From Rugosimonospora sp. (GTDB lineage: Bacteria > Actinomycetota > Actinomycetes > Mycobacteriales > Micromonosporaceae), in the NCBI GenBank assembly GCA_035278125.1, contig DATEJJ010000852.1, positions 757 through 64,756 on the forward strand: a stretch of DNA of 64,000 nucleotides. Reading direction: 5' to 3'. The first letter of the stretch is position 1, and every line of letters begins with the position of its first letter. Under the pieces are notes generated by a model. That model saw only the letters and a program-made list of their open reading frames with translations. It searched no databases and was not told where the DNA came from. The translations under genes were made by a program, and so were the position numbers. Below are positions 181 through 48,007 of this stretch, one piece after another.

Positions 181-2373
181 TCAGCCGTCATCCGCACCCA
201 CTCCGGAAGGATAACGGTCCCGCCGGCCGGCGACCCGGTGCGACCGGACCGGCACCATGTCCCAGGCGATACGTCCCGAGGCGAGCGTCAGCAGGAACAC
301 CAGATCCCGGGACTCGAAGCCCGGCGGCAGATCAGCCTCGAAGCCGCCGGGCCGCCGGGCCAGCGGACAGGTATACCGGTTGCCCCGGCCGGTATCGGGG
401 CCCTGTACCGAGTCGAGGATGAGATCCACCCGGTCGGCGTGCGGGAAGCGGTACGTGACCCGGTATCCGCCGCCGCCCGCTCGTACCCGGCACCGCTCCG
501 CCACCAGCGCGCGGGAGTCCGGGCCGGCCAGTTCCGCGAGCTCCGCACAGCGTTCGAAGTCGGCGCGGCGGTAGGCGGCGTCGAAGAGCCGCCGCACCGA
601 CGCGGCGTCGACCACGGCACAGCGTGCGTACACGTCCAGATCCCCGCGCTCCCGGGCCGCCTCGGCCACCCGGGCCCGCTGGGCCGTCCATCCGCTCTCA
701 CTGACCCGGTCGAACCAGCCGCTGTCGATGGCGAAGGCATCGGCCTCAGCACCCGCCCCGACCGGCGGCCCGGCGCGGAACCGCTCCAGGCGGCGCCCGG
801 CACACCGCTCCCACGTGAAGCTCCGGCCCACCTCCCGAGCGTTGCGCGACAACCGCCGGTAGGTCGCTGGGTCGTGCCGGAAAATGTCGACCGCGTGCTC
901 GATCGCGGTGACCAGGTTGGCGACCAGGCGCTCGTCCTTCGCCCGGAACGACCGTGGTACGGCGAAGCCGGTGGCCGCCGGATCCGACAGGGGCAGGGTG
1001 CAGCGGTAGTGGGTGAACGTCTGTTGGGCCGTGATGATGGGCACCGTGCCGCAGGCCATCGCCTCACCGAGCGCGATATGGAACGTGTCGAGTTCGAACT
1101 TGGACGGGAAAACGCAGAAGTCGGCCGCGGCGGCCTCATCGAAGAGGGCCTCCTCGTCGACCATGTTCCAGTCCAGGTACACGCGGCCCGGGTACCGGTC
1201 GGCGACCTCCTGGAAGTACGGGACGGCGGCCGAGGCGCGTACCGCGCCCGTGCCAACCGCGCACCGGATGACGAAGTTCAGGCCGGGGTCGTCGGCGAGA
1301 ACCCGATCCACCGCGCGCATGAGCTCGAACTGGCCCTTGTGGTTCTGGTCGAGGCGGGCCGCGTGGTAGAAGGTGGGGAGGCGCGCGTCCAGTCCACGCT
1401 CGGCGAGAACCCGGCTACGGTCCACTGTGGACGGATCGCGGGCCAGCCACCAGTCCGGCAGGGCACACCCGCCGACGAACTGCTTGTGGGCCGTCTCCTT
1501 GACGATGCGGGAGACGGTCCACCGCTCGAACCCGCGCTCCGACGGCGCGTCCCGGAAGGTGGAGTAGTACTGTCGCTGGCCCGGGGACAGGAAGTCGATG
1601 ATGTCGGTGTAGGCCGCCACCAGCGAGAAGTAGCAGGTGTAGTCGGGTCCGTAGTCAAACTGCCGGTAGGACGGGCGCAGGTAGTTGGCCATCGCGGTGT
1701 CCAGCGCGTCGCCCGGCGGCGGATCAGCGAACCGGTCGAGGTCGACGGTGGTGGAGAACATCCGCAGCAGGCGTTCGAGCTGCGGCCGGTACACCTTCTC
1801 GTTGATGGGTGAGTTGAGCGCGACGGTGCTGACGAGGGTACGGCCGGGCACACCACCCAGGACGGCTGGGAGCAGGTAGTGGTGGTAGGGCTCGTGGCAG
1901 TGTACGACCCCGGGCTCTCCGGCGAGCAGCCGCTCCACGAGGCGGACGGCGTCGACCTGGAACACCATCGGCTTGAAGTAGGCGAAATCGGTGCCGTGCG
2001 TCTCGTTGTCCGGGTAGAGCCGGTCGGGCAGCAGGTCGAGGTACTCGTTGGCCAGGAAGTAGATGTCCACGCCGTCCCGGCGGAGCAGGAATACCCGGGT
2101 GGACAAGGCGAGCGTCAACTCGACCGGATGGTCCGGCCACACCTTCGGATCGAGCACCAGCGGTACCGCGTGCGCTTCCCGGTACGGCAGTTCGCGCGCG
2201 CCGTACCGGTCCACCAGGTAGTCCGCGTGGCCGTGGGCCGGCGTGATCAGAGATACCCGGTGTCCGGTGGCCGCGTACTGCTGGGCCAGGTGCCACACGA
2301 GAGTGGCCGCACCGCCGCGCTTGAGCCGCCCGTCGAAGGCTATCGACTCGAAGGCGACCTTCACGATATGCAT
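181..2373 (-). CDS. Glycogen-synthase-like GT-B glycosyltransferase with ~230 aa C-terminal extension (AcbS/AcbI-like), paralog 1
   Basis: ORF 181..2532(-). Start moved to ATG 2373 (MHIVKVAFES), which matches the N-termini of paralogs 2 and 3. Motifs: HCHEPYHHY, FPSKFELDTF, GEAMACG. Overlaps the upstream gene stop by 13 nt. Confidence 0.85.
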   Translation of the reverse strand: MHIVKVAFESIAFDGRLKRGGAATLVWHLAQQYAATGHRVSLITPAHGHADYLVDRYGARELPYREAHAVPLVLDPKVWPDHPVELTLALSTRVFLLRRDGVDIYFLANEYLDLLPDRLYPDNETHGTDFAYFKPMVFQVDAVRLVERLLAGEPGVVHCHEPYHHYLLPAVLGGVPGRTLVSTVALNSPINEKVYRPQLERLLRMFSTTVDLDRFADPPPGDALDTAMANYLRPSYRQFDYGPDYTCYFSLVAAYTDIIDFLSPGQRQYYSTFRDAPSERGFERWTVSRIVKETAHKQFVGGCALPDWWLARDPSTVDRSRVLAERGLDARLPTFYHAARLDQNHKGQFELMRAVDRVLADDPGLNFVIRCAVGTGAVRASAAVPYFQEVADRYPGRVYLDWNMVDEEALFDEAAAADFCVFPSKFELDTFHIALGEAMACGTVPIITAQQTFTHYRCTLPLSDPAATGFAVPRSFRAKDERLVANLVTAIEHAVDIFRHDPATYRRLSRNAREVGRSFTWERCAGRRLERFRAGPPVGAGAEADAFAIDSGWFDRVSESGWTAQRARVAEAARERGDLDVYARCAVVDAASVRRLFDAAYRRADFERCAELAELAGPDSRALVAERCRVRAGGGGYRVTYRFPHADRVDLILDSVQGPDTGRGNRYTCPLARRPGGFEADLPPGFESRDLVFLLTLASGRIAWDMVPVRSHRVAGRRDRYPSGVGADDG

Positions 2374-3440
2374 GCGCGATCCCCCTCCGCGTCCGGATGG
2401 CTCCCCGGTTGCTGCACGCCCGGCCGCCCCGCCGCGCGCTGGCTCAGCAGGATCCGGGTGCCGGCCGCCACCCCGTGCCGGGCCAGGGACCTGACGGGCA
2501 CAAGCCGGTCCAGCCGGGTACTGGTCAGGCACGCGTTCACCGGCCGGCAGGCGTACCTGGTCTGCTCCCGCCGGACCGGCGCGACCAGATCACGGGATCG
2601 CCCCAGCGCCTGCCCGATCGCCACCGCCCAGCCGTACCGCGAGATCCGGTCCGGACCGCCGAGGTGAAGCGGCCCCGACGGCGGCGCGGGCAGCAGCGCG
2701 GCGATGACCCGCACCACATCGTCCACGAGCAGCGGGGTGTTCCAGTGGTCGTACGGCGCGGCCACCGGCTGTCCGCGCTCCAGTTGCTGGACGCAGTGGG
2801 CGAAGAAGTTCAGCCACTGCCCCCCGCCCGGCTGCCACCCGTAGACCGCGCTGGCCCGAAGGACGGTGACGCGGGCGGACCGCTCCCGCAGGATCTGCTC
2901 GGCGCCCAGCTTCGCGCGCCCGTATGCGTTGGCCGGGTGCGGGATGGCGGACTCGTCGTAGGTGTCCGCGTCGCCACGGAAGACGTTGTCGGTGGACACG
3001 CCGATGAAGTGGGCGGCGGGCACCGCCGCGACGAGGTTGGCGGCGGCCCGGGTGTGCGCGGCGAGCGCCTCCGCCGGATGCGACTGGCACCAGGTCACGT
3101 CGGAAGGGCCGTGGACCAGCACGACGGCGTCCGGCTGCGCGAGATCGGCGGCGGCGCGGCAGGCGGCGGCATCGGTGACGTCCAGCGCGAGCCAGGCCGG
3201 CGGCAGATCGGCCGAATCCTCCACAGTGGACGATCCGGCACCGGCCGGCCGGGTAGTGACCGGCCCCGCACTGACCGGCGCCACGCCGGACGGTCCCACA
3301 CTGGCCGGCGCCACGGCGGCCGGGCCGGGTTGCGAAACCGGTGGCCGACGGGAGCACATGACGGCCGGAATTCCGGTACCGGCCAGGTGGTGGGCCAGTG
3401 CCCCACCGATCAGCCCACTACCCGCGATCATGACCCGCAT
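2361..3440 (-). CDS. NAD(P)-dependent RmlD-like sugar/cyclitol reductase-epimerase (extended SDR) with P/A/V/G-rich insertion
   Basis: Rossmann motif [20 protein letters not shown] (YxxxK), and RmlD substrate-binding-like C-terminal half. Residues ~31-81 are a low-complexity insert. TGATG junction with the ROK gene. Confidence 0.8.
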   Translation of the reverse strand: MRVMIAGSGLIGGALAHHLAGTGIPAVMCSRRPPVSQPGPAAVAPASVGPSGVAPVSAGPVTTRPAGAGSSTVEDSADLPPAWLALDVTDAAACRAAADLAQPDAVVLVHGPSDVTWCQSHPAEALAAHTRAAANLVAAVPAAHFIGVSTDNVFRGDADTYDESAIPHPANAYGRAKLGAEQILRERSARVTVLRASAVYGWQPGGGQWLNFFAHCVQQLERGQPVAAPYDHWNTPLLVDDVVRVIAALLPAPPSGPLHLGGPDRISRYGWAVAIGQALGRSRDLVAPVRREQTRYACRPVNACLTSTRLDRLVPVRSLARHGVAAGTRILLSQRAAGRPGVQQPGSHPDAEGDRACIS

Positions 3441-4489
3441 CAGCCCGTCCTCACCGTCGATCCGCCACCCGGGACCGTGGGTTCCGGCTGCGGTTCCGGG
3501 GCGGCGGTCGTGATCCGGCCGGCGCCGATCAGCGCGTGGTCGTCGTCCGGCTCACCCAACTGGGCCATCCGCCGGATGCGTTCCGGCGGCAGCCCGAAGC
3601 AGCCACGCGCGTCGAGCTGTTCGGCGAGCAGGTCCACATAGGACTGGCCGATCGCCTGAGCGAACCCGCCGACGATCACGTAGTGGCAGATTCCGGCCGC
3701 GGTGAACAGCGCGGTGACGGCGGACGCGAGGTGGGCCAGCCCGGTGCGCAGCACGTCCAGGGCGAAGGCGTCGCCGCCGGCCACTGCGCGGGCCAGGCCG
3801 ACCGCGTCGATCTCGGCCTGCCGAGCCAGGACCGAGCGGCGAAACGGCCCTGGGTCCCGGACCGCACGGCGTCGCGCAAGGGCCACCGCGCCCCGCCCCG
3901 AGGCAATGCCCCCCAGGTGTCCCCGCCCACCGCACTCGCACGGCAGCGCGTCCGGCCCGGTGTCGCAGGTCCAGTGGCCCAGCTCACCGCCGATCCCGTC
4001 CGGATCCACCATGACGCGGCCGGCGTGCACAACCTTGTTGCCGATCCCGGAGCTGACGGTGATCAGGCAGAAGGGCTCGGGAACCCGGCCGAGGTAGCGC
4101 CACGCGGCGGCGGTCAGATCGTTGACGACGACCACCGGGGCGTCGAGCCGGTCGCGCAGTTCCGCGGTCAGCGGCACCGGTTCGGCCGGGCCGCCCCAGA
4201 TGGTGGGGGCCGCCGTGACGACGCCGCCGTCGGTGACCGGACCGGCGAAGGCGACGACGATCTCGGCCGGATCACGCGGACCGGTCCGGATCCGCTCAAT
4301 CTCCCGGCCGATCTGGGCCACCACCCGCTCCTGCAGCACCGCTGCCGGGTCGTCCGGGTGGCGCGCCATGCCCTCAACGGGTACCCGGCGGACCTCCGAC
4401 AAGCGGCCCGTGTGCCTTTCGTAGCGCGCGGTGCGCAGCGTGGTTCCGCCGACGTCGAGCACGATGCGGTTGGCGGGAGAGGGCCTCAT
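3440..4489 (-). CDS. ROK-family kinase (AcbM/ValC-like C7-cyclitol kinase candidate)
   Basis: ORF 3440..4753(-). Start set at ATG 4489 ([19 protein letters not shown]), in an ATGA overlap with the upstream stop. Motifs: [27 protein letters not shown] (ROK Cys motif). Confidence 0.85.
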
Positions 4490-5589
4490 ACCGGCACCGC
4501 CGCTCCGGCGACCGGGGCCACCACACCGGCCTCGGTCACGATGGCGGACTCCACCACGGCACCGGGGCCGATCCGCGCACCGGGCAGCAGCACCGCGTCG
4601 CGGACGTGGGCGCCGGCGCCAATGCGTACCCCCGGAAAGGCCACGCTCGTCGCCAGTAGCCCGTCGTTGACCAGATCCGCCGGCACAATGCTGCGCTCCA
4701 CCCCGGGCGCCTTGCGCACGAAGCCCCGCGCCACCGCCGGAGCGACCAGGCACGGCATCTCGCCCAGAGTCATCGTCGGTGGGTCGGACACCAACGACAG
4801 GTGCGCCCGGTGGTACCGCTGCACCGTGCCGATGTCCGCCCAGTAGCCGCGTACCTCGTACCCCCGGATCAACTCGCCCCCGGCGAGCATGGCGGGAATC
4901 ACATCATGGCTGACGTCGTGCTGCCAGCCGGTACCGTCGAGCAGTTCCAGGTAGCGCCGCAGGATCGCGGCGTCGAATACGCAGAACGCCGCGAACACCA
5001 GGTCCGAGGTGACCGTCCGGGGCTTCTCCTCGAACCGGGTCAGCACGCCGTCCGGCCCGAACTCCACCATGCCGAACAGGTGGACGTACCGCCGCTCGAT
5101 GCGCTGGAAGGTGAGGGTGAGCGCGGCCCCGCTGTCCCGGTGGGTCCGGATCAGGTCGCGGTAGTCGAACGAGTAGACGTGGTCGGCGTGCAGCAGGAGC
5201 ACCTCCGTGACATCGGGCTGGAAGATGTACGCACCCTTGCGGATGAGCGCGTCAGCGGTACCGCGCTCGGGCGGGCCGGCGGGCGGGGCGGGCGCCGGTA
5301 CCGAGGCGTCCCGGGCCGCCCGGCGGTAGGCCGCGTCGTACGGTCCGAAGTGGACCCGGAAGCCGGGGCGCCACCACACCCGGAACAGGTCGTCCATGAG
5401 CTCGCGCTCCTCATGCTGCGAGAGCAGCAGTACCTCGCTGAAGCCTGAATTCCAGGCGTTGGCGATGCTGAAGTCGACGAGCCGGCAGGACCCCCCGAAA
5501 GGGATCAGCGGCTTGAGGCGCCCCGCGCCGAGTTGAGCCATGCGGGTACCCGCGCCCCCCGCCAGCAGTACCGCCCGCACGTCACCCAC
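4486..5589 (-). CDS. GlgC-like sugar/cyclitol-1-phosphate nucleotidyltransferase (AcbR/ValB-like)
   Basis: N-terminal [13 protein letters not shown]-transferase loop, GTADAL, and C-terminal left-handed beta-helix repeats ([26 protein letters not shown]). GTG start overlaps the GT2 stop by 8 nt. Confidence 0.85.
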
Positions 5590-7702
5590 GGGTCACCACA
5601 TCCCAGGCCACGCGCCCGCTGTCGAGGGTCAGCAGGAAGCACAGCGGCGACCCGTCCGGCGGATCCGGAAGGGTGGCGGTGAACGCGTCTCCATCGCGAC
5701 CCAGGGTCAGCACCTGAGCCCCGTCACCGATCCCCTGGAATACCAGCTCGACCCGCTGCGCGCTGGCCATGCGGTACCGCAGCCGGCGGGATGCTCCACT
5801 GTGGACGATCTCCAGCCGGTTCCGCACCGCGCTGAGCAACGGGAGCCGGGTTCCAACCGGTGCCTCCGACGCGATGGTCTCGCAGGCCGCGAAGTCGGCC
5901 CGCGCGTAGGCCGCGTCGAACAGCCGCCGCGCGGACTCCGGCGTCAGCGGCTGGCACCGGGTGAACGCCCGCACGTCGCCCCGGGCGAGCGCCCGCTCGG
6001 CGATGTCGGCGGCCCGGCTCCGCCAGCCGGCGGCGGAGACGCGGTCGAACCAACCGTTACGCAGTGCCGTGTCATCGCCGAGCACGGGGCGGCGCCCGTC
6101 GTGCACCTCCTGGAATGCGGCCAGGTGCTGCCGCGCGCAGCGTTCCCAGGTGAACTGCCGGGCGGTCCTGGCGGCGTTGCCGGACAGCCGGCGGTACTCG
6201 TCGGGCTGCTCGCGCCGCAGTCGCACCGCCGCGCGCATCGCCGCCGCCAGATCGTCGACGAGGATCGGGGCGTCCTCGGCAAAGGCGCGCGTGAGCGCGA
6301 ACCCGGTGGCCGAGTCCCGGTCCGGTCCGTGGTGCGGATCGGGGACGTGGCCGAAGTGAGCCATGCCCTCCTGGGCGGTGGCGATCGGCACCGCGCCGCA
6401 GGCCATTGCCTCCCCCTGTGCGATGAGGAACGTGTCCATCTCGTACTTGGACGGGAAAACGCAGTAGTCGGCGCTGGCCGCGTAGCCGAAGATGCGGTCC
6501 TCGGGAACCTGGTGCCATTCCAGATAGACCCGACCGGGGTACCGGCGGGCCACCTCGTGGAAGTAGGGGTCGTCGATGCCCGCCGGGGCCAGGCAACGGA
6601 TGATGAAGTTGGCCGCCAGGCCATCACCGAGCACCCGGTCAACCGCCCGCATCAACTCCCGCTGGCCCTTGTGCTCGACCGCGTAGCGGGCGTTGTGGAA
6701 GAACGTCACCCGGTCAGGCGCCAGCCCGAGCTCCGCGCGTACCGCCGCGCGGTCCACGGTGGACGGATCGGTGGACAGCCAGCGGTCGGACAGCGCGCAG
6801 CCGCCGACGAAGAACTTGTGTGCGTTGCGGGCCACCACGTCCGACACCGCGAGCCGGGTGAACAGCGCCTCGAACGGGGTATCGGCGAACGTCGAGTAGA
6901 AGTGCAGCTGGCCGGGCGACAGGAAGTCCACCAGGTCGGCGTGCTCGGCTACCAGGGCGAAGATGTTCACGTACTCCGGCGGGTACTCGTAGTGCAGGTG
7001 GGTGCGGCGCTGGTACCGGCTCATCGCGGCGTTCGCGGGGCCGTCCGGTACCGGGTCGGCGGCCGGCAGTTCGACCTTCACGTCGAGGGCGGCCAGCAGC
7101 GACTCGACCTCCCGGCGGTACACCATCTTGGTGATGGGCATGTTGCTCTGCACGGTGCTGGCGACAACCGTGTCGGGGTCGTCACGGAAGGCCGCCGGTA
7201 CCAGGTAATGGTAGAAGGGTTCGTGCGTGTGGATGACCGCGCGCTCGCCGCGGAACTGGTGCCGCATGAACCGCACACTGTCCACCTGGAACACCAGCGG
7301 CTTGAAGAACACCAGATCCCGGCCCTTGGTGTGGTACGGCGGGTAGAACGTGTCCGGCAGCCGGTCGAGCATGTCGTTGGACAGGAAGTACAGGTCCACC
7401 CCCTCGATCGTGACGCGGTGCGCCGTCGTCCGCAGCGGGATATCGACGGTCTCGGGGTAGTCCCGCCACACCCGCCGATCGAGTGGGATGGTCACCGTGT
7501 GTACGCCGTCGAACGGCACAGGCGTGACCGTGTGGTACCGGCGCAGATCCTCCAGCCGGCCGTGTGCCGGGGCGACAACGCTCACCCGGTGCCCTGCGGC
7601 GGCCATCGAACGGGAGAGATTCCACAGGTACACGGAGGTGCCCCCCTGAACCAGCCGGTGGTCGAACCCGCCGACGTCGAAGTAGTGCTCGATGATGTGC
7701 AT
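5582..7702 (-). CDS. Glycogen-synthase-like GT-B glycosyltransferase with C-terminal extension, paralog 2
   Basis: ORF 5582..7867(-). Start set at ATG 7702 ([17 protein letters not shown]). Motifs: [26 protein letters not shown]. The C-terminal [11 protein letters not shown]...[14 protein letters not shown] is conserved with paralogs 1 and 3. Confidence 0.85.
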
Positions 7703-7727
7703 CGATGTCCTCCACGCCCCATGCCTG

Positions 7728-9032
7728 TTAGCTGACTCCCGCCTCGCGGCCGGCCAGTCCGATCGCGCGATCCAGCCGGTCCAACCCCTCCTCCAGCACC
7801 TCCTCCGGCACGTTGAACGGTGGGGCCAGGCGGATGACGTTGCCGCCGAAGGCAACGCGGACGCCACCGTCGAGCGCGGCGCGGTACACCCGCCGGGCGA
7901 GATCCGGGGCCGGCGCGCGGGTACGCCGGTCAGTGACGAACTCCAGGCCGTACAGCAACCCCAGCCCGCGCACGTCGCCCAGCCCGGAATGCTTGTCCCG
8001 CAACGCGTGCAGCCGCTCGGCGAGCCGGCCGGCCAGGGCGTTCACCCGGTCGATCAGCCGGTCCCGCTCGACGACCCGCAGGGTGGCCTCGGCCACGGCG
8101 ATGCCCAGCGGGTTGCCGCCGTAGGTCGACGCGGTGGACCCGGCGACCGCCGCCGCCCCGGCCAGCGGTTCCGACCGGCCGGCGAGGACCGCGAAGGGGA
8201 AGCCGGAGCCGAGCCCCTTGGCCAGCGTCACCAGGTCGGGCTCGATGCCGAACCGCTCGCTGGCCAGGAACGTGCCGGTACGCCCGCCACCCGTGAGCAC
8301 CTCGTCGGCGATCAGCAGGACGCCGTTGGCGCGGCAGGCGTCCTGAATCAGTTCCCAGTAGCCCGGAGGCGGCACGATAACCCCGGCCGCGCCGAGTACC
8401 GGCTCGAAGAACAGCGCGCTGATGTTGGGTTTCTCCGCGATGTGCCGGCGGACCAGCTTCGCGCACCGCAGTTCGCACGAGGGGTACGTGAGGTCGAGTG
8501 GACAGCGGTAGCAGTACGGCGCATAGCCGAGCACGCTGTTGCCGGCGAGCGCCTGGTTGCCGATGTCCCAGTGCACCAGCATCCGGGCGCCCTGCGTTTT
8601 CCCGTGGAAGCCGTGGCGCAGCGCGCCGACCCGGTTGCGCCCGGGCGCCGCGCTCGCGAGTACCACGCGCAGCGCGGCCTCCACCACCTCGGCGCCGGTG
8701 CTGAAGAAGCTCAGCGTGTGCAGGTACGGCGGGAGCATCCGGGCCAGGGTGCGGCACAACTCGGCCCGGCCGGTGGTGGCGCTGTCATGGACATTCCACA
8801 GGCGCGCCGCTTGCCGGGTCAGGGCCTCGACGACCTCCGGATGGCAGTGCCCGACGGACTGGGTCAGGGTGCCCGCCGCGAGATCGATGTACTGGTTGCC
8901 ATCCAGGTCGGTCAGGATGGCACCCTGGCCCCGGTCGAACACCCGCTGCCCGGCGGTCGTCTCCTCGGAGGCGCCGGGCGCGAGATACGGTGCCTCGGCG
9001 CGCAGGGCGTCGCGCTGGCGTTCAGCCGTCAT
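7728..9032 (-). CDS. Class-III (GabT-like) PLP aminotransferase (AcbV/ValM-like)
   Basis: Motifs: DEVLTGGGRTG, TLAKGLGSG (Schiff-base Lys), STYGGNPLG. ATG 9032 preferred. A GTG at 9050 is the alternative start. Confidence 0.85.
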   Translation of the reverse strand: MTAERQRDALRAEAPYLAPGASEETTAGQRVFDRGQGAILTDLDGNQYIDLAAGTLTQSVGHCHPEVVEALTRQAARLWNVHDSATTGRAELCRTLARMLPPYLHTLSFFSTGAEVVEAALRVVLASAAPGRNRVGALRHGFHGKTQGARMLVHWDIGNQALAGNSVLGYAPYCYRCPLDLTYPSCELRCAKLVRRHIAEKPNISALFFEPVLGAAGVIVPPPGYWELIQDACRANGVLLIADEVLTGGGRTGTFLASERFGIEPDLVTLAKGLGSGFPFAVLAGRSEPLAGAAAVAGSTASTYGGNPLGIAVAEATLRVVERDRLIDRVNALAGRLAERLHALRDKHSGLGDVRGLGLLYGLEFVTDRRTRAPAPDLARRVYRAALDGGVRVAFGGNVIRLAPPFNVPEEVLEEGLDRLDRAIGLAGREAGVS

Positions 9033-10629
9033 GGGCCGCCCGGTCCTCACCGGCCGCCTCGAAGACCAGAAGCTCCAAGGGTACCGTCGAGTCGTTCCGC
9101 AGCCCGTGCTCGCCGAACGGCCCGTTGACGATCACGTCGCCGGCCCGTACCGGGAACTCCTCACCATCCACGCTCATCATCCCCTGGCCCCGCAGCACGA
9201 TGTACGTCTCCTGGTCGTCACCGTGCCGGTGCCGGCCGATGGAGCTGGCCGGCGGAATGGTCACCAGATCGATGAAGGCCACCGGCGCCAGACCGGCCAG
9301 CCGGTCGTACGCCCGGTGGACGCGGATCGGCCCGTCGCCACCGTGGTCGCCGTACACGGCCCGCATCAGATCGTCGTACACGTTGCCGCGCCGGGGTTCC
9401 GGCCGACCGGAGGACACGGCACCGGTCGCCGGCCCCGGGACGGATGGACTGACTCCCGGCGCCCCCGCCGCCCCCGATCGCCCGCGCAGCGCGGCCAACG
9501 CCTCCTCCAGCACCGGCAGCGGCAGGTCCTCCAACGATTCCACGAAGACGGTCTTGCCCAGCGCCGACGGCAGAACGAGGTTGAGCCGGCGACCGCGCCG
9601 CTCCCAGGCCGCCGTCAACGCCCGCCGCATGAACTCCGGCGTACAGGTCTGCGGGTCGAACACGGGCAGCCCGAGCCGGGCGATCAGGTCGACGATCCGC
9701 TCGCACTCCCCGGCCGGGCAGACACCGATCACCCGGGCGATGTGGCTGGAGATGGCCATGTCGATCGCGACCGACTCGCCGTGCGCGACCCGGTACCCGC
9801 TGGCGGTCTCGATGACGGGCCCGAAGGTGTGCCCGAAGTCCACGATCCGCGCGAGGTCCGTCTCGCACAGGTTGTCGCACAGTTCGTCGAGCATCAGCCG
9901 GATCGCGGTTCGGCTGACGCGGCGCCCGACCTCTCCCCCACGATCGCTCATCGGGTGCTGCAGCGCGTGGGCGTTCTCGTCGATGACGCGGAAGAGCTCC
10001 TCGTCGCGGATGACCGCCATCTTGACGATCTCCGCCAGCCCACACCGCGTCTCCCGGAGGGGCAGCGTGGCGAGGAAGGACATGTCGTTGAGTGACGCGT
10101 CGGGAGCGTGGTAGGCGCCGAGCATGTTCTTGGCCCCCACGCCGTTGACGCCGGTCTTCACGCCCACCCCGGCGTCCACCTGCGCGACCAGCGTCGTGTT
10201 GATTTTGACGTACGAAACGCCCCGCGCATAGATGGACGCGGCGAAACCCACCACGTCGCTGACCACACCGCCGCCGAACGCCATCATCACGCCGTGCCGG
10301 TCGAGGCCGAACCGCTTCGCGAACGCGCAGGTACGTTCGACATTGGCCAGCGTCTTGTTCGCCTCGCCGCTCGGTACCTCCGTCATGGTCCAGTCGCCCG
10401 GCTCCAGGTGCGCACCGAGATACTCGCGAAGCTGCCGGCCGTACAGCCGGTCGACCGTCGGGCTGACGAACGCGCACAACCGGCGGCCGCCAATGTAGTT
10501 GGCCAGCAGAGGGTTCTCCGGTGCGAGAATCCGTTCGCCCAGATCGACGCGGTACGAGATGCCTTCGGGCGAGCGGAGGGTGAACCATCCCTCTTCCTCG
10601 ACAACGGCGGACGTGATGCTTCGAGTCAT
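9022..10629 (-). CDS. Sedoheptulose-7-phosphate cyclase (2-epi-5-epi-valiolone synthase-like, DHQS superfamily) fused to a C-terminal metal-binding cupin
   Basis: ORF 9022..10701(-). Start set at ATG 10629 (MTRSITSAVV). DHQS-like motifs: GGGVVSDVVGFAASIY, DFGHTFGPVIE, HGESVAIDM. After an A/G/P/S linker come cupin motif 1 (GRHRHGDDQETYIVLRGQG) and motif 2 (GDVIVNGPFGEHGLRN). Confidence 0.85.
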   Translation of the reverse strand: MTRSITSAVVEEEGWFTLRSPEGISYRVDLGERILAPENPLLANYIGGRRLCAFVSPTVDRLYGRQLREYLGAHLEPGDWTMTEVPSGEANKTLANVERTCAFAKRFGLDRHGVMMAFGGGVVSDVVGFAASIYARGVSYVKINTTLVAQVDAGVGVKTGVNGVGAKNMLGAYHAPDASLNDMSFLATLPLRETRCGLAEIVKMAVIRDEELFRVIDENAHALQHPMSDRGGEVGRRVSRTAIRLMLDELCDNLCETDLARIVDFGHTFGPVIETASGYRVAHGESVAIDMAISSHIARVIGVCPAGECERIVDLIARLGLPVFDPQTCTPEFMRRALTAAWERRGRRLNLVLPSALGKTVFVESLEDLPLPVLEEALAALRGRSGAAGAPGVSPSVPGPATGAVSSGRPEPRRGNVYDDLMRAVYGDHGGDGPIRVHRAYDRLAGLAPVAFIDLVTIPPASSIGRHRHGDDQETYIVLRGQGMMSVDGEEFPVRAGDVIVNGPFGEHGLRNDSTVPLELLVFEAAGEDRAAHDG

Positions 10630-10744
10630 CGATAGCTTCCCCTGACAGCCCATTGAGTGGTGCGGTGGAGAACGCAGGCGAAACACCGCGCGCACAGGCA
10701 TCGCTGTATGCGCGTACCGTCATGGTGTATTCGCTGTTGCTCTG

Positions 10745-10855: not shown

Positions 10856-11890
10856 GTGGAGCGCGCGGTGGTCGTCGACAATCTGGTCAAGGAGTTCAAG
10901 GTCTATGAGCGGGGCTCGGGCCTGACCGGCAGCCTGCGCACTTTGCTGAGCCGCGACTACCGGCTGGTGCGCGCGGTTGACCATGTGTCCTTCGAGATCG
11001 AGGAGGGTGCGAAGGTCGCCTACATCGGCGCCAACGGCGCGGGTAAGTCAACGACCATCAAAATGCTGACCGGTGTGATGACCCCCACATCGGGCAGCTG
11101 CCTGGTGGGTGGCATCGAACCGTACCGGCAGCGGCGCCTCGCGGCGCGTCGCATGGGTGTCGTATTCGGCCAGCGTACCCAGCTCTGGTGGGACCTTTCC
11201 GTGCCCGACGCATTCCGCATTCTGCGGCGAGTCTACGAGATCCCCGATCCGGTGTACCACCGAAACATGGCGCTGTACCGGGAACTGCTGGACATCGATG
11301 CCCTCGGTACCGCGCCGGTGCGCACCCTCAGTCTCGGACAGCGCATGCGGGCCGAGGTGGCGGCGAGTCTGGTACACGATCCCGCCGTGCTCTTCCTGGA
11401 CGAGCCGACGATCGGCCTGGATCTGTTCCTCAAGGACGCCGTGCGGGAACTGATCAATCGGGTGAACCGGGACCTGGGCACCACCGTCGTGCTGACCAGT
11501 CATGACCTCAACGACATCGCCGCCATCTGCGACTGGGTTCTGGTCATCGACCGGGGGCGCGTCATCCACCAGGGCACGATCTCCGGGCTGCTGGCCACGG
11601 CCGACCAACGCTGCATTGTGGTCAACGCCAACGGCCGGCACCCGGCCGCCGAGATCGCCTCGGCGGTACACCGTCATCTGCCCGGTGTGCGGGCGCAGCC
11701 GACCGACGGCGGGCGCGTCGAGGTGTGCTACCCGCCCGATCGGGTCTCCTCCCGGGCCGTGCTGAGCTTCCTGCTGGACCGGTTCGATATCGGCGAGTGG
11801 TACGCCCCGGAGCCGGATCTGGCCGGCGTCATCCGCGCCATCTACGCCTCACCGGCCGTACCCGCCGGTCGGGACGGCACCGCGTGCTGA
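10856..11890 (+). CDS. ABC transporter ATP-binding protein (AcbW-like, ABC-2 exporter type)
   Basis: Walker A GANGAGKST, signature LSLGQRMR, Walker B VLFLDEPTIGLD, H-loop TSHD. GTG start. Confidence 0.9.
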   Translation: MERAVVVDNLVKEFKVYERGSGLTGSLRTLLSRDYRLVRAVDHVSFEIEEGAKVAYIGANGAGKSTTIKMLTGVMTPTSGSCLVGGIEPYRQRRLAARRMGVVFGQRTQLWWDLSVPDAFRILRRVYEIPDPVYHRNMALYRELLDIDALGTAPVRTLSLGQRMRAEVAASLVHDPAVLFLDEPTIGLDLFLKDAVRELINRVNRDLGTTVVLTSHDLNDIAAICDWVLVIDRGRVIHQGTISGLLATADQRCIVVNANGRHPAAEIASAVHRHLPGVRAQPTDGGRVEVCYPPDRVSSRAVLSFLLDRFDIGEWYAPEPDLAGVIRAIYASPAVPAGRDGTAC

Positions 11891-12687
11891 CCGCCCGGTA
11901 CACGGCATTCATGAGCGCGAAGACGCACACCTTCCTGCAGTACCGGGGGGCGCTGGCGATGACCGCGACGGGCGGTGTCATCAGCGTCGCGGTCCAGGTG
12001 TTCCTGTGGCGGGCCGTGGCGGCCAACGCGGCGGGTGGCCGGGTGGGCGGCTTTGACGGCCGGCAATTGACCACCTACATCCTCGTCGCGCAGCTGCTCG
12101 CCCTGGTCCACGCGAACCGGGTCGACGAGGAGATCGCGGAGGACATCTACACGGGATCCATCGTCGCGTCGGTCATCCGGCCGGTCAGCTATCCGCTGAT
12201 GCGCCTGGCGGTGGCGATTCCGGTGGTCACGCTCAACGCCGTATTCGTGGCGGGCCCGGTGCTCGTACCGTTCCTACTGCTGGTTCCGCTGTCGGTACCC
12301 ACACCGGCCCGAGCGGTCATGTTCGTGGCCAGCGTGCTGCTATCGGTCGTCATCGCGTTCCTGGTCAACCTGCTCGTCGGATATGCCGGCCTGCTGACCA
12401 CCAACAACTGGGGACTGCGCAACGTGAAGGATGGTGTCGTTTCGTTCCTGGCCGGCCGGCTGATGCCGATCTCGGTCATGCCCGGCGCGCTCGCCACGGT
12501 CTGCGCCGCGCTGCCGTTCCAGGGCATGGTCTACGCACCGACCCGGCTCCTGCTGGGCGGCTACCACGGAACCGGCGAGGCGGTCGGCATCCTCGGTCAG
12601 CAGGCCGCCTGGGTGCTGGTCCTGTCGCTGCTTTCCGGGTTGGTGTGGCGGCGGGTGCGCCGCCGGCTGGAGGTGTTCGGCGGATGA
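11884..12687 (+). CDS. ABC-2 type exporter permease (AcbX/Y-like)
   Basis: ORF 11725..12687. Start at GTG 11884 (GTGCTGA overlap with the ATPase stop) or ATG 11911. Multiple hydrophobic helices. Confidence 0.75.
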   Translation: MLTARYTAFMSAKTHTFLQYRGALAMTATGGVISVAVQVFLWRAVAANAAGGRVGGFDGRQLTTYILVAQLLALVHANRVDEEIAEDIYTGSIVASVIRPVSYPLMRLAVAIPVVTLNAVFVAGPVLVPFLLLVPLSVPTPARAVMFVASVLLSVVIAFLVNLLVGYAGLLTTNNWGLRNVKDGVVSFLAGRLMPISVMPGALATVCAALPFQGMVYAPTRLLLGGYHGTGEAVGILGQQAAWVLVLSLLSGLVWRRVRRRLEVFGG

Positions 12688-13505
12688 AGGGCAGCCCACC
12701 GACCGCCATCGCCAGTCTCACGCGGTACCTGAAGCTGACCATCTTCTTCGGCGGCGTGGGCCTGCACCGGCTCACCGCGTACCGGTTGGACTTCATGCTC
12801 GGCGCGGGCAGCTTCTTCGTCCGGGTCGGCACGCAGGCGGCGGTGCTCATGTTCATTTTCCGCCAGGTACCGGTCATCGAGGGCTGGGGGTACCGCCAGA
12901 CGCTGTTCCTGTTCGGCTTTTCGCTGATACCACGCGGACTGGACCACCTGTTCACCGACCAGCTGTGGGAGGTCGGGCGCAAGCTGGTGCTCACCGGTGA
13001 CTTCCACCGGTACCTGATCCGGCCCCTCGGTCCGCTGTTCGGTGTGTTGTCGGAGCGCTTTCTCTACCCGGACGGGTTCGGTGAGTTGCTCGTCGGCGTG
13101 GCCATCACCGGGTACGCCGGGCACCGGCTCGGCCTGCACCTGTCGCCGGGACAGCTGCTGCTGCTCCCGCTGCTGATCCTGTCCGGCGCGCTCATCTACG
13201 CCGGTATCAAGCTCCTGCTGGCCTCCGCCGCGTTCTGGACGACCACCAGCATGCCGGCCATGGCCGCCACCTACCAGGCATCGGATTTCGCGGCCTATCC
13301 GCTGGAGATCTACGGGACGGCCGTGCGCCGCCTGCTGACCTGGGTACTGCCGTTCGCGTTCACCTCGTACGCACCCGTGTCGTATCTGCTCTACGGGCGT
13401 ACCCACTTGTTGGTCTGGACGCCCCTCGTGGTCGTGGTGGTCCTGTTGCTGGCCGCTGCGGCGTGGTCCCGGGGCGTCCGGCGGTACGAGATGAGCGGCA
13501 CCTGA
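12684..13505 (+). CDS. ABC-2 type exporter permease (AcbX/Y-like), second subunit
   Basis: ORF 12645..13505. Start at ATG 12684 (MKGSPPTAIA), in an ATGA overlap with the previous stop. Polytopic hydrophobic profile. Confidence 0.8.
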   Translation: MKGSPPTAIASLTRYLKLTIFFGGVGLHRLTAYRLDFMLGAGSFFVRVGTQAAVLMFIFRQVPVIEGWGYRQTLFLFGFSLIPRGLDHLFTDQLWEVGRKLVLTGDFHRYLIRPLGPLFGVLSERFLYPDGFGELLVGVAITGYAGHRLGLHLSPGQLLLLPLLILSGALIYAGIKLLLASAAFWTTTSMPAMAATYQASDFAAYPLEIYGTAVRRLLTWVLPFAFTSYAPVSYLLYGRTHLLVWTPLVVVVVLLLAAAAWSRGVRRYEMSGT

Positions 13506-28433: not shown

Positions 28434-28601
28434 TCAATGCGGGCCGGTCGGGTCGGTGCTCGGCGGTGGGTCCGTCTTCGGGTCAGCAACCTGCATGACA
28501 TGGCCACCAACGCGGATCGCGGTGTAGGCCCCGATCACACCGGGAGGCGCCAGGGTTACCGCTGCCAGCGCCATCGCGGCGAGTAGTTGCCTGATCTTCA
28601 A
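28434..28601 (-). CDS. Small (55 aa) secreted hypothetical protein
   Basis: TTG start at 28601 preceded by GGAGG at 7 nt. Hydrophobic N-terminus LKIRQLLAAMALAAVTLAPP and a Pro/Thr/Asp-rich tail. Sits 22 nt upstream of the next gene. Confidence 0.5.
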   Translation of the reverse strand: MKIRQLLAAMALAAVTLAPPGVIGAYTAIRVGGHVMQVADPKTDPPPSTDPTGPH

Positions 28602-28724
28602 GGTGGCACCTCCTACCGGTAGACCCGTTCCACCCCGTTCCATCCCCAGACCTGTGGTGCCGGGACGCCTAGTCGCGTTGTCGGCGTGGTCGCGCCTCGC
28701 TCAGGTCTGCGCTACGAAACAGCT

Positions 28725-29552
28725 TTACGCGGTGTCCGACTGGTATTGGTCGAAGGTCATGCCCACCTGAACCTCAAACTCAACCGCGAAGACGTCGCCA
28801 GTGGGGCCGGCCATATGAACCTCGCCGTGCTGCCAGATCCGCTTCCACTCCAACGTGATCTGCACGCACACACCGGGGGGCACCGCGACGGTGATCTCTT
28901 CCTCGAACACCTGCCGTGTCGCCGTATCGATCATGTAGTTGCGCTGTATCGCCCTCTCGACGTCGGCCTTCGCGTTGAGCCAGACAGGTCCCGCAGTCAG
29001 GCTGGTGTGCTGCCTGGCTGCCTGCTCGAAGTGAACCGTGTAGTTGCGGGTCCACTCGTGGCTGAAACTGATACCGCGCGTCGTGGCAACCGCGCTGGCA
29101 CGGTTGTCGATCTTGCGCGACTCGTCACCGATCCGCTCGGTCGAGCGGCGGGTCTCCTTGATGTCCAAGACTCTCAACAGCCGGGCGTCGCGTGTCACCG
29201 GTTCGCCTGCGACCGTCGTTGCCTGCGGTGTCGAAGACGCGGTCGGCGCTCTTGGTTCCGGACCTATCTCCCGAATGATGTGGATATTGTTGCCAACGGC
29301 GCTGGACTCGGCACGACATACAAGCTCCACGTCCTCGCCCGCTCCCAACTCGATCTCGAGCTGGCGACTCTTGCTTGACCAGCAGAGAAGCTGAACGGTG
29401 TGCCGGCCAGTCGCGACGCCGATCATGAGTTCTCGATCTTCCCTGATCCGGCCGACCTCGCGACCGTCGATGCGCACGACGAATGCGGACGCCCTGTACG
29501 CCGATCCGGGCTGGCGCAGCAGGTGGATGTGCGTTTGCGCTTCTGCCGCCAT
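28725..29552 (-). CDS. Hypothetical protein (275 aa), no family recognised
   Basis: Balanced amino-acid composition (E, K, I, T, Q), unlike the R-rich antisense ORF 28686..29378. Lies in a visibly lower-GC region. Confidence 0.55.
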   Translation of the reverse strand: MAAEAQTHIHLLRQPGSAYRASAFVVRIDGREVGRIREDRELMIGVATGRHTVQLLCWSSKSRQLEIELGAGEDVELVCRAESSAVGNNIHIIREIGPEPRAPTASSTPQATTVAGEPVTRDARLLRVLDIKETRRSTERIGDESRKIDNRASAVATTRGISFSHEWTRNYTVHFEQAARQHTSLTAGPVWLNAKADVERAIQRNYMIDTATRQVFEEEITVAVPPGVCVQITLEWKRIWQHGEVHMAGPTGDVFAVEFEVQVGMTFDQYQSDTA

Positions 29553-30256
29553 CGGATGATCCGCCCTGGGTCGTCAGGCTCGTACAAGCGCGCTCGACCC
29601 ATGCATCGATAGGTCTGCGCCGACGTCGTCGTCGAACCGCTCGCGCGAACGGGGCCGAGCGCGATCGGACCGGTCAAGTATCGCGCGGCGTCCGCCGCCA
29701 CAACCGCGAGAAGACGCATGACCGTCGCGATGCGTCCATGATCCGACACCCAGCACCGTGATCAACACGCGGCTCAGACCCGTGCGGCAGGACGCCCACC
29801 CCGTTACGCAATCTTCGCCGCGTGGACCACCCCGCTACTGCTTACCGCCGCCATGCCACCGCGACGCCTGAACGGAGCGGTCTGAGTTTGACCCGGCCAC
29901 CTGTCTGTGAGACTTCCCGGCGCGCGGCGGGTCGATCCCCAAGGCCACGGTGACCAGCGATGTGATCTTCATCGGTGGTGGGCTCGACGCCACCACCACC
30001 ACGCTGGTCGTCGCTCTCGTCGTCACGGCCGGCGTCACGCCGCTGCCGTTCAACATCAAATTGACCCAGCGGACCGCCCGCAGAGGGTCAGTTTTCAGCC
30101 GCCGTCGACATCTGACGTAGGTGGATTTCGGTTGCGCCGTTGACACCCGGAATCGGATGCCCCGACGTAGCCTCCGGTGCCGGCCCGGCTTTCTGATGCC
30201 GGAAACGCGGGGAACGACGGCGCTACGCGGTAGTCGCCGCGCACCGCTCAAGCCGG

Positions 30257-30655
30257 CTAGGGATCGCGGGTGCCCTGTATCCGGCGACGGCGCATCGCAG
30301 CGAAGAGACCGACGTCGATGACGGTGGTGGGGGCGGCGATCAGCCCAACCAGCACGAGTTTGCCGATGCGCTTCTCGTCGCAGGCGGTGTTGATGGCCTG
30401 AGCTGTGGCGGCCAGACCGTTGGTGAGGTAACCGGCATCGTAGGCATCGTCACCGTTGTCCTTGCCGGCGGCGACCGCGGCGAGGGAATGGCAGGTCGCA
30501 CGCGAGCCGGAGGGCGAGGTGTAGACGGTGACGGTCGGGGTGGAGAACAACAGCCACCCCAGCCAGGCGGTCAGGCCGGCCGCGGCCACGGTGGCCGTCG
30601 TCCACGCCAACGCCTTCGTCCAGGCCGACGCATTCACGTCAATATGATGAGGCAC
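30257..30655 (-). CDS. Hypothetical membrane protein (two predicted TM helices)
   Basis: Hydrophobic segments ALAWTTATVAAAGLTAWLGWLLF and LVLVGLIAAPTTVIDVGLFAAM. GTG start is uncertain (30655 or 30637). Confidence 0.45.
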   Translation of the reverse strand: MPHHIDVNASAWTKALAWTTATVAAAGLTAWLGWLLFSTPTVTVYTSPSGSRATCHSLAAVAAGKDNGDDAYDAGYLTNGLAATAQAINTACDEKRIGKLVLVGLIAAPTTVIDVGLFAAMRRRRIQGTRDP

Positions 30656-31216
30656 GCCCGGCAGAATCGATACCTGGCGTCAGCATTCCCGGGTTGCGCT
30701 TCGGGGGTGGGTCGGGTGCGGGCGCCAGGAGTACCCCCGCCGCAGCCGATGAGGGGTTCGACGACGCCACCCCACCCTGCCACCATCGCCCACCTACGCA
30801 TTCGCCGACGCAACCGCCTTGGCGGCCTCATCCATGAATATCAACATGCCGCCTGAGCTGGATGGACGAGGTTCGGCAAGCAGGCCGACGGGGCGCGCGG
30901 TTGATGGCCGCCCAGGGCTGGCAGGACGAGTTCTGCGCTCGGCGCTGGCGGCTGCGCTCGACCCAGTCCGATCCGCAGCTTTGGTCACTATATGGGCGTC
31001 ATTACCAGAGTCAAAACGGGGTTCTCCCTCAGCGCCCCTGGGTGCGACCACATCTCGGTCGCGTACACTCCAGTCCTATTGTCCCGGCCCAGTCGGCACA
31101 AGCTCACCGGCGCGGGAGCGTAATGTCTACCATCGACCGGGCGTTTCCTGAGGTGCCCGGGGTTTCGTGCGTCTGGCCACCGCCAGTCGGCGCACGTCCC
31201 ACGGAGGCTGATCGGC

Positions 31217-31759
31217 GTGAACTTGTCCCGTCTCGTCGTGCTGGGTCTTCTGGCCGGAGGCCCGATGCACGGCCATGCTATCCGGCGGGAAGCCGAGCGC
31301 ATGAACGTCGGCAACTGGGGCGGGGTCAGCCCGGGTGCGCTCTACCGGGAGCTGCGGCGCGTCGAGGAAGAGGGCTTCATCGAGCCGACTCGGGTCGAGC
31401 AGGAAGGGCTGCGCCCGACGCGCACCATCTACCAGATCACCGGCGCCGGCCAGACCGAGTTGGAGAAGATCCTTCAGGAGTGCATCGCCGAGGTGCACGG
31501 CGCGCCGGACGTGCTCGGCATGGCGCTGGTATTCGGTCAGATCCTCGACCGCGACAGGACGCTCGAGATGCTCCACCGCCGCCGGAGGGAACTCACCGCC
31601 ATGCTCAGCTCGATCTCCGAGCACATCAGGACGTTGACCGAGATGGGTGTGCTGAGTCCGATCGGTGTCACCATGTTCCGGCGGCGGGAGCTCCAGCTCG
31701 AGGCAGAATTGCGCTGGCAGGACGAGTTCGAGGACCAGTTGGGCAAGACCGCCGATTGA
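31217..31759 (+). CDS. PadR-family transcriptional regulator
   Basis: Winged-HTH segment LVVLGLLAGGPMHGHAIRREAERM...SPGALYRELRRVEEEGFI...RTIYQITGAGQTEL, plus a C-terminal coiled-coil domain. GTG start. Confidence 0.85.
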   Translation: MNLSRLVVLGLLAGGPMHGHAIRREAERMNVGNWGGVSPGALYRELRRVEEEGFIEPTRVEQEGLRPTRTIYQITGAGQTELEKILQECIAEVHGAPDVLGMALVFGQILDRDRTLEMLHRRRRELTAMLSSISEHIRTLTEMGVLSPIGVTMFRRRELQLEAELRWQDEFEDQLGKTAD

Positions 31760-31889
31760 TCCGTCACCCGGTTGGTACCGGCGTCTTCGAGTAGGGCGAG
31801 AGCGAACCACGAGGTTCGGCGCCCACGATCGTTATGCGCACCGACACGCCGGGATGCCTACCCCGGCCTGTCGTCCACGTGGATCGCGG

Positions 31890-32852: not shown

Positions 32853-33099
32853 TGATTTGTGTTGTGTTTCTTCGAGCGTCATTGGTACCGCAATCCTAGT
32901 CAGGAGAATTCGAACGCTCGACCGTTCCGTGACGGTCCCGTGCGTAAATCGTCCAGGTGAGGACGCCATGACCAGGTCCCATTGCAAAGAGCGCATTTCT
33001 CCCACGATGAATCTGACCGACGGCCGGCCGCCCGGCGGCAAATCGAGAAGCATTCCACCTCCTGCGACGTCCACCGGACGGTCCGGCTGTTACGGCGAG

Positions 33100-33680: not shown

Positions 33681-33689
33681 GGCCGGTGG

Positions 33690-47994: not shown

Positions 47995-48007
<13 letters not shown>

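Follow-up and report, generated by a model that had tools for sequence, protein, structure and literature searches.

The stretch of DNA analyzed here (the window, 64,000 nucleotides (nt) from Rugosimonospora sp. of the Micromonosporaceae; contig DATEJJ010000852.1 of GenBank assembly GCA_035278125.1, positions 757 to 64,756) carries a gene in which a sedoheptulose 7-phosphate (SH7P) cyclase is continuous with a cupin (9022..10629, minus strand), and thereby raises two questions, namely whether this joining is natural and which reaction the attached cupin would perform. The gene is best explained as a natural fusion of two adjacent genes that are normally translationally coupled in C7N pseudo-oligosaccharide clusters of the gac/sct type. 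As to the second question, there is about an even chance that the cupin acts as a C-2 epimerase on free EEV (2-epi-5-epi-valiolone).

The gene lies within a minus-strand open reading frame (ORF) that spans positions 9022-10701. The ATG at 10629, which agrees with the N-termini of homologues, was taken as the best start and gives a protein of 535 amino acids (aa) ending at a TGA stop (9022-9024), a gene call based on the ORF list, the sequence, and Pfam. Six nt upstream of this ATG lies a putative ribosome-binding site (AGGGGAAG; 10636..10643, minus strand), as judged from the sequence. An identical protein is already recorded (P0001) under the NCBI annotation of a metagenome-assembled genome (MAG) as 'MAG TPA: cupin domain-containing protein [Rugosimonospora sp.]'. 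The protein consists of a dehydroquinate synthase (DHQS)-like cyclase (aa 1-389), a linker (aa 390-416), and a Cupin_2 domain (aa 417-531). Pfam matches are DHQ_synthase (PF01761; aa 84-195, 1e-36) and DHQS_C (PF24621; aa 197-325, 1.5e-24) in the first part and Cupin_2 (PF07883; aa 455-522, 6e-15) in the last, and in the full-length AlphaFold2 model both domains are confident (mean predicted local distance difference test (pLDDT) 84.7; predicted template modeling score (pTM) 0.70). A sequence-only reading of the window had described a DHQS-like cyclase, an A/G/P/S linker, and a cupin in one ORF; this description is borne out by the sequence, by the AlphaFold2 model, and by the domain scan which that reading proposed, where Pfam recovers the cyclase and cupin domains on the same protein.

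The two halves of the protein are commonly found as neighbors. One genome per species of the Genome Taxonomy Database (GTDB) was scanned with the cupin alignment, which yielded 80 loci: 78 from Streptomyces or Kitasatospora, one from Polymorphospora, and one from a Planctomycetota MAG. A DHQS-like cyclase gene lies directly upstream of the cupin gene on the same strand at 79 of the 80 loci, always in another frame and as a separate gene, the exception being a locus (L016) where the cyclase gene lies 3 kb downstream of the cupin gene; a fused cyclase-cupin occurs at none of the 80 species loci. In most cases, the cyclase gene runs into the cupin gene by 4 or 8 nt, so that stop and start overlap (ATGA or GTGA), which is the classic signature of translational coupling. 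The association of cyclase and cupin also extends to Planctomycetota, Myxococcota, and Bradyrhizobium (in the last, the cyclase gene is divergently transcribed at 1.4 kb from the cupin gene). In Streptomyces sp. Edi4 and Streptomyces coelicoflavus, the genes are ordered cyclase, cupin, ROK kinase, and RmlD-like short-chain dehydrogenase/reductase (SDR), which is also the commonest order in the survey, and the genes found upstream are those of AcbS/AcbI-like glycosyltransferases, a nucleotidyltransferase, a PfkB kinase, and GH77. Seven of the 74 full-length surveyed loci (including L005-L010) are ordered as in the window, with cyclase, cupin, and then a class-III aminotransferase (~72% identical), and this order suggests that the window is a member of a separate cluster subtype. 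The sequence-only reading had expected the step after cyclization to use a separate AcbO or a ValD/CetB-type enzyme of the vicinal oxygen chelate (VOC) fold. Clusters of the gac/sct type use neither and carry a cupin gene that overlaps the cyclase gene; since cupin and cyclase already stand side by side there, the pairing is common and only the covalent fusion is unusual.

In the window, the halves are joined by a disordered A/G/P/S-rich linker of about 27 residues (aa 390-416; 9382..9462, minus strand; pLDDT <50), and the sequence between them contains neither a stop nor a frame change. The G+C content at third codon positions (GC3) of the linker is 0.75-0.80, and thus at least 0.75 throughout, versus 0.85-1.0 elsewhere. 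When compared with unfused junctions, the linker corresponds to the former C-terminal tail of the cyclase plus the N-terminal extension of the cupin. In Polymorphospora (L008), which belongs to the same family as the source organism, the two genes are unfused with an ATGA overlap, the cyclase tail reads ...ALVALAAAGRAGRPG..., and the cupin starts with MTGPTPGAG...RRTRVPNLHRDLMREV. The window linker (...ALAALRGRSGAAGAPG...GRPEPRRGNVYDDLMRAV) resembles this cyclase tail and cupin start combined, the outcome that a stop loss at an overlapping junction would have.

A profile search of 1.84 billion representative proteins gave 81 representatives of the cupin family at E <=1e-30, the long matches among which were scanned with Pfam. 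In the collections searched, the same-order fusion is represented by five sequences including the window protein, to which the others are 52-63% identical, and the reverse order by one. The four others are a 561-aa protein from a JGI metagenome (P0002; 56-58% identical to the window protein), two 547-aa proteins from Streptomyces europaeiscabiei (P0003) and Streptomyces sp. NPDC047880 (P0004), and an N-terminally truncated match of the profile search with an A/P-rich linker (P0176; 63% identical). Linker length and sequence vary among them. The JGI protein has the same context as the window protein (its gene comes after a divergent ABC exporter and before the genes of a class-III aminotransferase, an AcbS-like glycosyltransferase, and a nucleotidyltransferase), and its neighbors are 67-75% identical to their window counterparts. 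Bootstrapped neighbor-joining (NJ) trees of cyclase and cupin (200 replicates), in which the four full-length same-order fusions were included, recovered these four as monophyletic in 0 of 200 replicates; the two Streptomyces fusions cluster with unfused relatives (88-94%), and the window protein pairs with the JGI protein (79%). Because the trees never unite these four sequences as one group, they indicate that the same-order fusion probably arose independently at least twice. The notion of a unique architecture was rejected on account of the further fusions in the profile search, one of them in reverse order. That the architecture is unusual, as the sequence-only reading had proposed, agrees with these six sequences and the lack of fusions at the 80 species loci, and the covalent fusion did not turn out to be already common and characterized: it is rare, and no paper that mentions a cyclase-cupin fusion was found in the literature searches. 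The sole paper on EEV and a cupin in the literature search concerns an unrelated JmjC cupin. In Streptomyces sp. NPDC047880 (L002), the fused gene comes first in a minimal cassette of four genes (fusion, ROK, SDR, and NUDIX). This cassette contains no glycosyltransferases and lies between helicase and nuclease genes, an arrangement suggestive of a small pathway to a free cyclitol.

Beyond the same-order fusions, the cupin family is a recurrent fusion partner of enzymes of cyclitol cassettes. The reverse-order protein (P0250; L088:8001-9563 of JGI metagenome 3300048574) comprises 520 aa with an N-terminal cupin and a C-terminal cyclase, and its halves show 38% and 42% identity to the window protein; its gene heads a compact operon with ROK, HAD phosphatase, and GFO/IDH/MocA oxidoreductase genes, next to a divergent sugar transporter. 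The cupin is furthermore fused to ROK kinases, in the order cupin-ROK (P0202 and P0229) as well as ROK-cupin (P0211), and its other partners are nucleotidyltransferase and NUDIX domains, which come after the cupin, and GFO/IDH/MocA, radical-SAM/SPASM, and PRK-like kinase domains, which come before it (the sequences with these various fusions being P0183, P0200, P0202, P0211, P0227, P0229, P0192/P0240/P0286, and P0243). Many bicupin forms exist in the same family, and distant members (43-46% identity) are also found near DHQS-like cyclases. A Myxococcota MAG (L085:10415-12592) encodes an uncharacterized 725-aa fusion of an NAD-dependent epimerase/SDR with a DHQS-like cyclase, and the operon of this fusion also codes for a separate cupin of the family, a ROK protein, a radical SAM protein, an NTP-transferase/NUDIX protein, and a DegT aminotransferase. 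The sequence-only reading had taken the known cyclases yielding EEV, 2-epi-valiolone, and desmethyl-4-deoxygadusol (EEVS, EVS, and DDGS) to be stand-alone enzymes, which holds for the characterized ones and fails for the databases, where reverse-order cupin-cyclase and SDR-cyclase fusions are present. As the family fuses to both cyclase and ROK kinase, a cupin step between these two fits, and the order of steps would be cyclase, then cupin, then kinase. The cyclase-cupin, cupin-ROK, and reverse-order fusions are thus Rosetta-stone evidence, which suggests that the cupin acts on the cyclase product before the kinase does.

The N-terminal domain (aa 1-389; 9463..10629, minus strand) is classified as a DHQS-like SH7P cyclase of the SctC/GacC type by its Pfam, NCBIfam, and PDB matches, with pLDDT mostly >85. 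In NCBIfam, TIGR01357 scores 226 bits against an aroB equivalog cut-off of 305, and because the aroB scores lie well under the equivalog cut-offs, the domain is regarded as DHQS-like rather than as a true AroB. The best PDB match is ValA (4P53, an EEVS; 2e-70, 240 bits), followed by the DDGS 5TPR (2e-53). The NAD motif GGGVVSD (aa 119-125) and the putative metal ligands E200, H267, and H283 recur without change in 86 of 86 relatives and align with the corresponding residues of ValA. Asp264 in the sequence VDFGH aligns with chain residue 287 of the ValA structure, which is Asp281 once the 6-residue tag is subtracted, while DDGS 5TPR has Ala in this place; the ValA Asp281 site is a fingerprint for EEVS versus DDGS (PMC4426668 Fig. 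1D). Two distant cyclases (L016 and L084) carry Asn instead of this EEVS-type Asp. The domain is best explained as an SH7P cyclase that depends on NAD+/Zn(Co) and falls in the SctC/GacC clade. Its product would be EEV, since producers with cyclases of this clade (60-61% identity to those of the gac and sct clusters) make valienamine-type units.

The C-terminal domain (aa 417-531; 9037..9381, minus strand) is an SctJ-type Cupin_2 domain, as supported by Pfam (6e-15), 61% identity to SctJ, AlphaFold2, and Foldseek. Both cupin motifs that had been read from the sequence are intact to the letter. Motif 1, HRHGDDQE (aa 467-474; 9208..9231, minus strand), provides the metal ligands H467, H469, and E474 and is invariant in 44 family members; motif 2, PFGEHGLRN (aa 504-512; 9094..9120, minus strand), provides the ligand H508 and the invariant N512. 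Together they give a 3-His/1-Glu site (H467-x-H469-x4-E474 and P504-x-G-x-H508-x3-N512), in which the spacing of motif 2 is one residue under the textbook cupin pattern. In the family alignments, H429, Y476, N502, and N512 are invariant besides the four metal ligands, and R439, D454, and R468 are nearly so. The conserved N-terminal strand of the domain carries DHGG (with H429) and is part of an SctJ-like N-terminal extension, N-L...DHGG-x-G...HR, whose N, H, G, G, and R do not vary in the alignment. When modeled alone with AlphaFold2, the cupin forms a beta-barrel (pLDDT 92.8), for which Foldseek returns TM1287 (1o4t) as the best match (TM score 0.84), and TM1459, DddK, KdgF, and an archaeal phosphomannose isomerase (PMI) are further structural neighbors according to Foldseek and the PDB profile search. 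No Glyoxalase/VOC Pfam match was found on the fused protein, and its predicted fold is the cupin barrel. A search with the cupin domain identified stand-alone cupins of 117-156 aa (54-64% identity) in Streptomyces, Kitasatospora, and Streptacidiphilus.

In EEV, the C-1 ketone adjoins the C-2 hydroxyl; a metal-bound enediolate would permit epimerization at C-2, and the same enediolate logic applies to metal-dependent VOC epimerases and to cupin sugar isomerases. Along these lines, the cyclase domain would turn SH7P into free ketocyclitol (EEV) and release it, after which the tethered cupin would take up the released ketocyclitol, bind its C1-keto/C2-hydroxy pair to the metal, and epimerize C-2 via the enediolate to yield 5-epi-valiolone. 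The SctM-like ROK kinase would next phosphorylate C-7, and the SDR and the nucleotidyltransferase would then lead toward an NDP-valienol-type donor for the AcbS-like glycosyltransferases.

Several observations weigh against this reading. Starting with the cyclase, EEV is a presumed product, and Arg344 (nt 9598-9600) occupies the column of ValA His360, which we take to be the second EEVS fingerprint site; the roles of Asp281 and His360 as fingerprints were reportedly also described by Kean et al. in 2014. DDGS has Thr at the His360 position, and Arg is found in 84 of 86 SctC-type relatives, where a conserved W(E/Q)RRGR motif holds it. The active-site signature that the sequence-only reading had singled out for inspection is therefore present at the ValA 281 position (Asp) and absent at the ValA 360 position, within a fingerprint of 14 residues of which these two positions were compared. 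As Asp264 is EEVS-like but Arg344 replaces His360, the cyclase is assigned to a distinct SctC/GacC clade. Regarding the cupin, the structural neighbors in Foldseek and the PDB profile search are generic small monocupins that indicate no specific reaction, the literature search found no assay of any SctJ-family enzyme, and the pTM of 0.70 for the full-length model gives no support for a fixed interdomain channel. Finally, the core of cyclase, cupin, ROK, and SDR is one enzyme short of what epimerization, dehydration, and reduction to valienol 7-phosphate would take, so that epimerization may be just a part of what the cupin does or may not be its reaction at all.

A serious, if rather unlikely, rival is that the cupin is a dehydratase or a bifunctional epimerase/dehydratase, which would remove the C-5 hydroxyl (E1cB via deprotonation at C-6) through a metal-stabilized enolate, so that the fused protein would make valienone or the 2-epimeric enone from SH7P and replace AcbO and AcbL. 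The conserved core argues for it, as epimerization and dehydration stay unassigned in a set of only cyclase, cupin, ROK, and RmlD-like SDR unless the cupin does both. RmlD-type SDRs are ketoreductases. Small monocupins include beta-eliminating lyases, for example the structural neighbor DddK, and the sct cluster is without AcbL and AcbN (PMC8234114). On the other hand, dehydration is assigned to SctO in the literature proposal (PMC8234114), and GMC and aldo-keto reductases, which frequently lie close by, could supply the reduction. The version in which the SctJ-type cupin performs both the C-2 epimerization and the C-5/C-6 dehydration on the free ketocyclitol, making the fused protein a 'valienone synthase' that converts SH7P to the enone before phosphorylation in place of AcbO and AcbL, is a little less probable again. 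If true, SctJ-type cupins would add a third class to the C7-cyclitol tailoring enzymes, one that has so far gone unrecognized and is structurally unrelated to the others.

A change of the cyclitol product by ketol (C1/C2) isomerization, as in cupin-type sugar isomerases, or by O2-dependent oxidation, as in 3-His/1-Glu cupin dioxygenases, is improbable. Such a role is in line with weak Pfam and JGI annotations that name the family mannose-6-phosphate-isomerase-like, with PDB profile matches that include quercetin 2,3-dioxygenase and PMI, and with the departure of the window cluster from sct (an adjacent aminotransferase, three GT5 paralogues, and no dTDP-sugar genes visible). Producers with the unfused pair (Streptomyces glaucescens gac and S. 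coelicoflavus sct), however, make ordinary valienamine-type units (PMC8234114), and the 3-His/1-Glu site does not separate the reaction types. Slightly less probable still is an action of the cupin before the cyclase, as a sugar-phosphate isomerase or anomerase that would supply the right form of the heptulose 7-phosphate. The family does resemble PMI-type cupins, and Kean et al. (in 2014) are said to have proposed that the stereochemistry of SH7P cyclases depends on the substrate anomer bound; yet SH7P is a primary metabolite, the cupin gene sits downstream of the cyclase gene, and the fusion partners of the family include ROK kinases, NUDIX, and nucleotidyltransferases, whose substrate is the cyclitol and not SH7P. 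It is very improbable that the cupin is a non-catalytic module for oligomerization, regulation, or metal delivery: cupins can be dimerization modules and CENP-C cupins are among the fold matches, but the four metal ligands and further polar residues are invariant across phyla, and biosynthetic operons also contain the domain as a gene of its own that is translationally coupled. The weakest explanation, almost certainly wrong, is an assembly or sequencing artefact in which the stop was lost or the frame shifted where the genes overlap, for although the source is a MAG and the cyclase and cupin genes of relatives overlap by 4-8 nt, so that one indel could join them, the four other same-order fusions were obtained independently, two of them from isolate genomes, and differ in their linkers, coding GC3 is kept through the linker, and the fused JGI homologue has a matching gene neighborhood, and on these independent homologues and continuous coding statistics the artefact was rejected, including the hidden stop between the halves that the sequence-only reading had considered.

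Valienamine-type pseudo-sugars (acarbose, validamycin, and acarviostatins) matter in medicine and agriculture, and the early steps of the Streptomyces (gac/sct) route are known from bioinformatic proposals rather than from biochemistry. If the cupin acts on the cyclase product before the kinase, it would be a third non-homologous solution for EEV processing beside AcbO and the VOC enzymes ValD/CetB. The pairing of cyclase and cupin is common and already has a proposed function, and the fusion does not reveal a new kind of system; the covalent fusion itself is rare, recurrent, and uncharacterized. As a natural single construct, it is handy for probing the chemistry of the cupin and possibly for engineering the production of valienone or valienol.

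The C7N cluster around the fused gene spans about 0.2-24.8 kb of the window and reaches its left edge. The fusion is followed directly by an AcbV/SctV-like class-III aminotransferase gene (7728..9032, minus strand; Pfam Aminotran_3, 6e-85; 75% identical to the gene that follows the fused homologue at locus L003), whose ATG (9030-9032) overlaps the 3' end of the fusion gene by 11 nt, which suggests that the two are translationally coupled. Further along the minus strand lie the genes of a GT5-like (pseudo)glycosyltransferase of the AcbS/SctS type (5582..7867; 761 aa; Pfam; 57% identical to SctS), an SctR/AcbR-like cyclitol nucleotidyltransferase (4486..5589; 367 aa; Pfam NTP_transferase; 64% identical to SctR), an SctM-like ROK-family C7-cyclitol kinase (3440..4490, start approximate; Pfam ROK and frame plot; 59% identical to SctM), an SctO-like RmlD-like extended SDR (2361..3440; 359 aa; Pfam RmlD_sub_bind, 1e-33; 44% identical to SctO), and a second GT5-like glycosyltransferase, which is SctI/AcbI-like (181..2532; 783 aa; Pfam; 46% identical to SctI). 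On the plus strand, a divergent AcbWXY/SctWXY-like ABC exporter is encoded by an ATPase and two ABC-2 permease genes (10856..13505; Pfam; 72% identical to the L003 ATPase). The cluster holds three paralogous GT5-like glycosyltransferases of the AcbS/AcbI type with 713-783 aa (181-2532, 5582-7867, and 21378-23519). Neither dTDP-glucose synthase and 4,6-dehydratase nor PfkB kinase and GH77 genes are seen in its visible part, and no VOC or Zn-ADH (AcbL-type) domain was found by Pfam among the scanned cluster ORFs. As the cluster extends to the left edge of the window, it may make something other than acarbose and the acarviostatins.

The remainder of the window is occupied by other sequence. Between two biosynthetic clusters, the region 24800-34100 has a lower G+C content (0.66-0.68), and only a small number of its ORFs are backed by convincing codon bias or by Pfam matches. 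It is followed at 34107-63422 by a separate cluster for a glycosylated aromatic polyketide (type II polyketide synthase), unrelated to the C7N cluster, with a ketosynthase (KS) pair, KS-alpha/KS-beta (47995-50537), a polyketide cyclase, a SARP regulator, an ABM monooxygenase, a P450, O-methyltransferases, three EryCIII-like glycosyltransferases, and a DrrAB-like exporter.

Compared with known systems, the closest solved structures of the cupin are TM1287 (TM score 0.84) and TM1459 (TM score ~0.77) from Thermotoga maritima, which resemble it in the 3-His/1-Glu site and in the N-terminal GG-x-G strand but are only about 24-29% identical to the window cupin and have no link to a cyclitol pathway. 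The joining of a DHQS-like cyclase to a neighboring pathway enzyme is also seen in AROM, AroK-AroB, P0250, and the Myxococcota SDR-DHQS protein, where the partner domain or the order differs from the window and where the cyclitol-pathway fusions are uncharacterized. ValA shares the DHQS-like fold, the NAD motif, the Glu/His/His metal ligands, and the Asp in VDFGH, whereas it is a stand-alone enzyme, a moderate match (240 bits), and has His360 where the window protein has Arg344; its partner ValD has a VOC fold instead of a cupin fold. ValD and CetB are VOC-type EEV epimerases of a metal-dependent fold that is unrelated to the cupin beta-barrel, and the reaction on free EEV is the one proposed for the window cupin. 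ValD is cited as ref. 27 in PMC7081202.

The AcbC/AcbM/AcbO route of Actinoplanes sp. SE50/110 follows the same logic of cyclization, C-7 phosphorylation, and C-2 epimerization (PMC9200736 and PMC7081202). AcbO works on the 7-phosphate, i.e., after the kinase, and has no homologue in sct (PMC8234114, Table 1), while the fusion of the cupin to the cyclase suggests that epimerization precedes phosphorylation in the window. The gac acarbose cluster of S. glaucescens contains an equivalent separate cyclase/cupin pair. The closest system is the sct acarviostatin cluster of S. coelicoflavus ZG0656, whose SctC and SctJ are each 61% identical to the respective halves of the window protein and stand in the same order, and which likewise encodes a ROK kinase, an RmlD-like SDR, AcbS/AcbI-like glycosyltransferases, a nucleotidyltransferase, and an ABC exporter. 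Its proteins include SctC (393 aa), SctJ (138 aa), SctM (350 aa), and SctO (324 aa) (PMC8234114); the acb cluster of Actinoplanes contains no homologue of SctJ, and sct in turn lacks AcbO, AcbL, and AcbN (PMC8234114, Table 1). In the window, by contrast, the aminotransferase directly follows the fusion, and dTDP-sugar genes, a PfkB kinase, and GH77 are not visible. SctC and SctJ are encoded by separate genes with an 8-nt stop-start overlap, whereas the window unites them in one polypeptide through a disordered 27-aa linker. Solely on bioinformatic grounds, SctJ has been proposed as an EEV 2-epimerase whose step precedes the SctM phosphorylation (PMC8234114, citing Guo et al. 2012), and the idea of an epimerase in cis thus agrees with the only published proposal, which was made for the stand-alone SctJ (PMC8234114).

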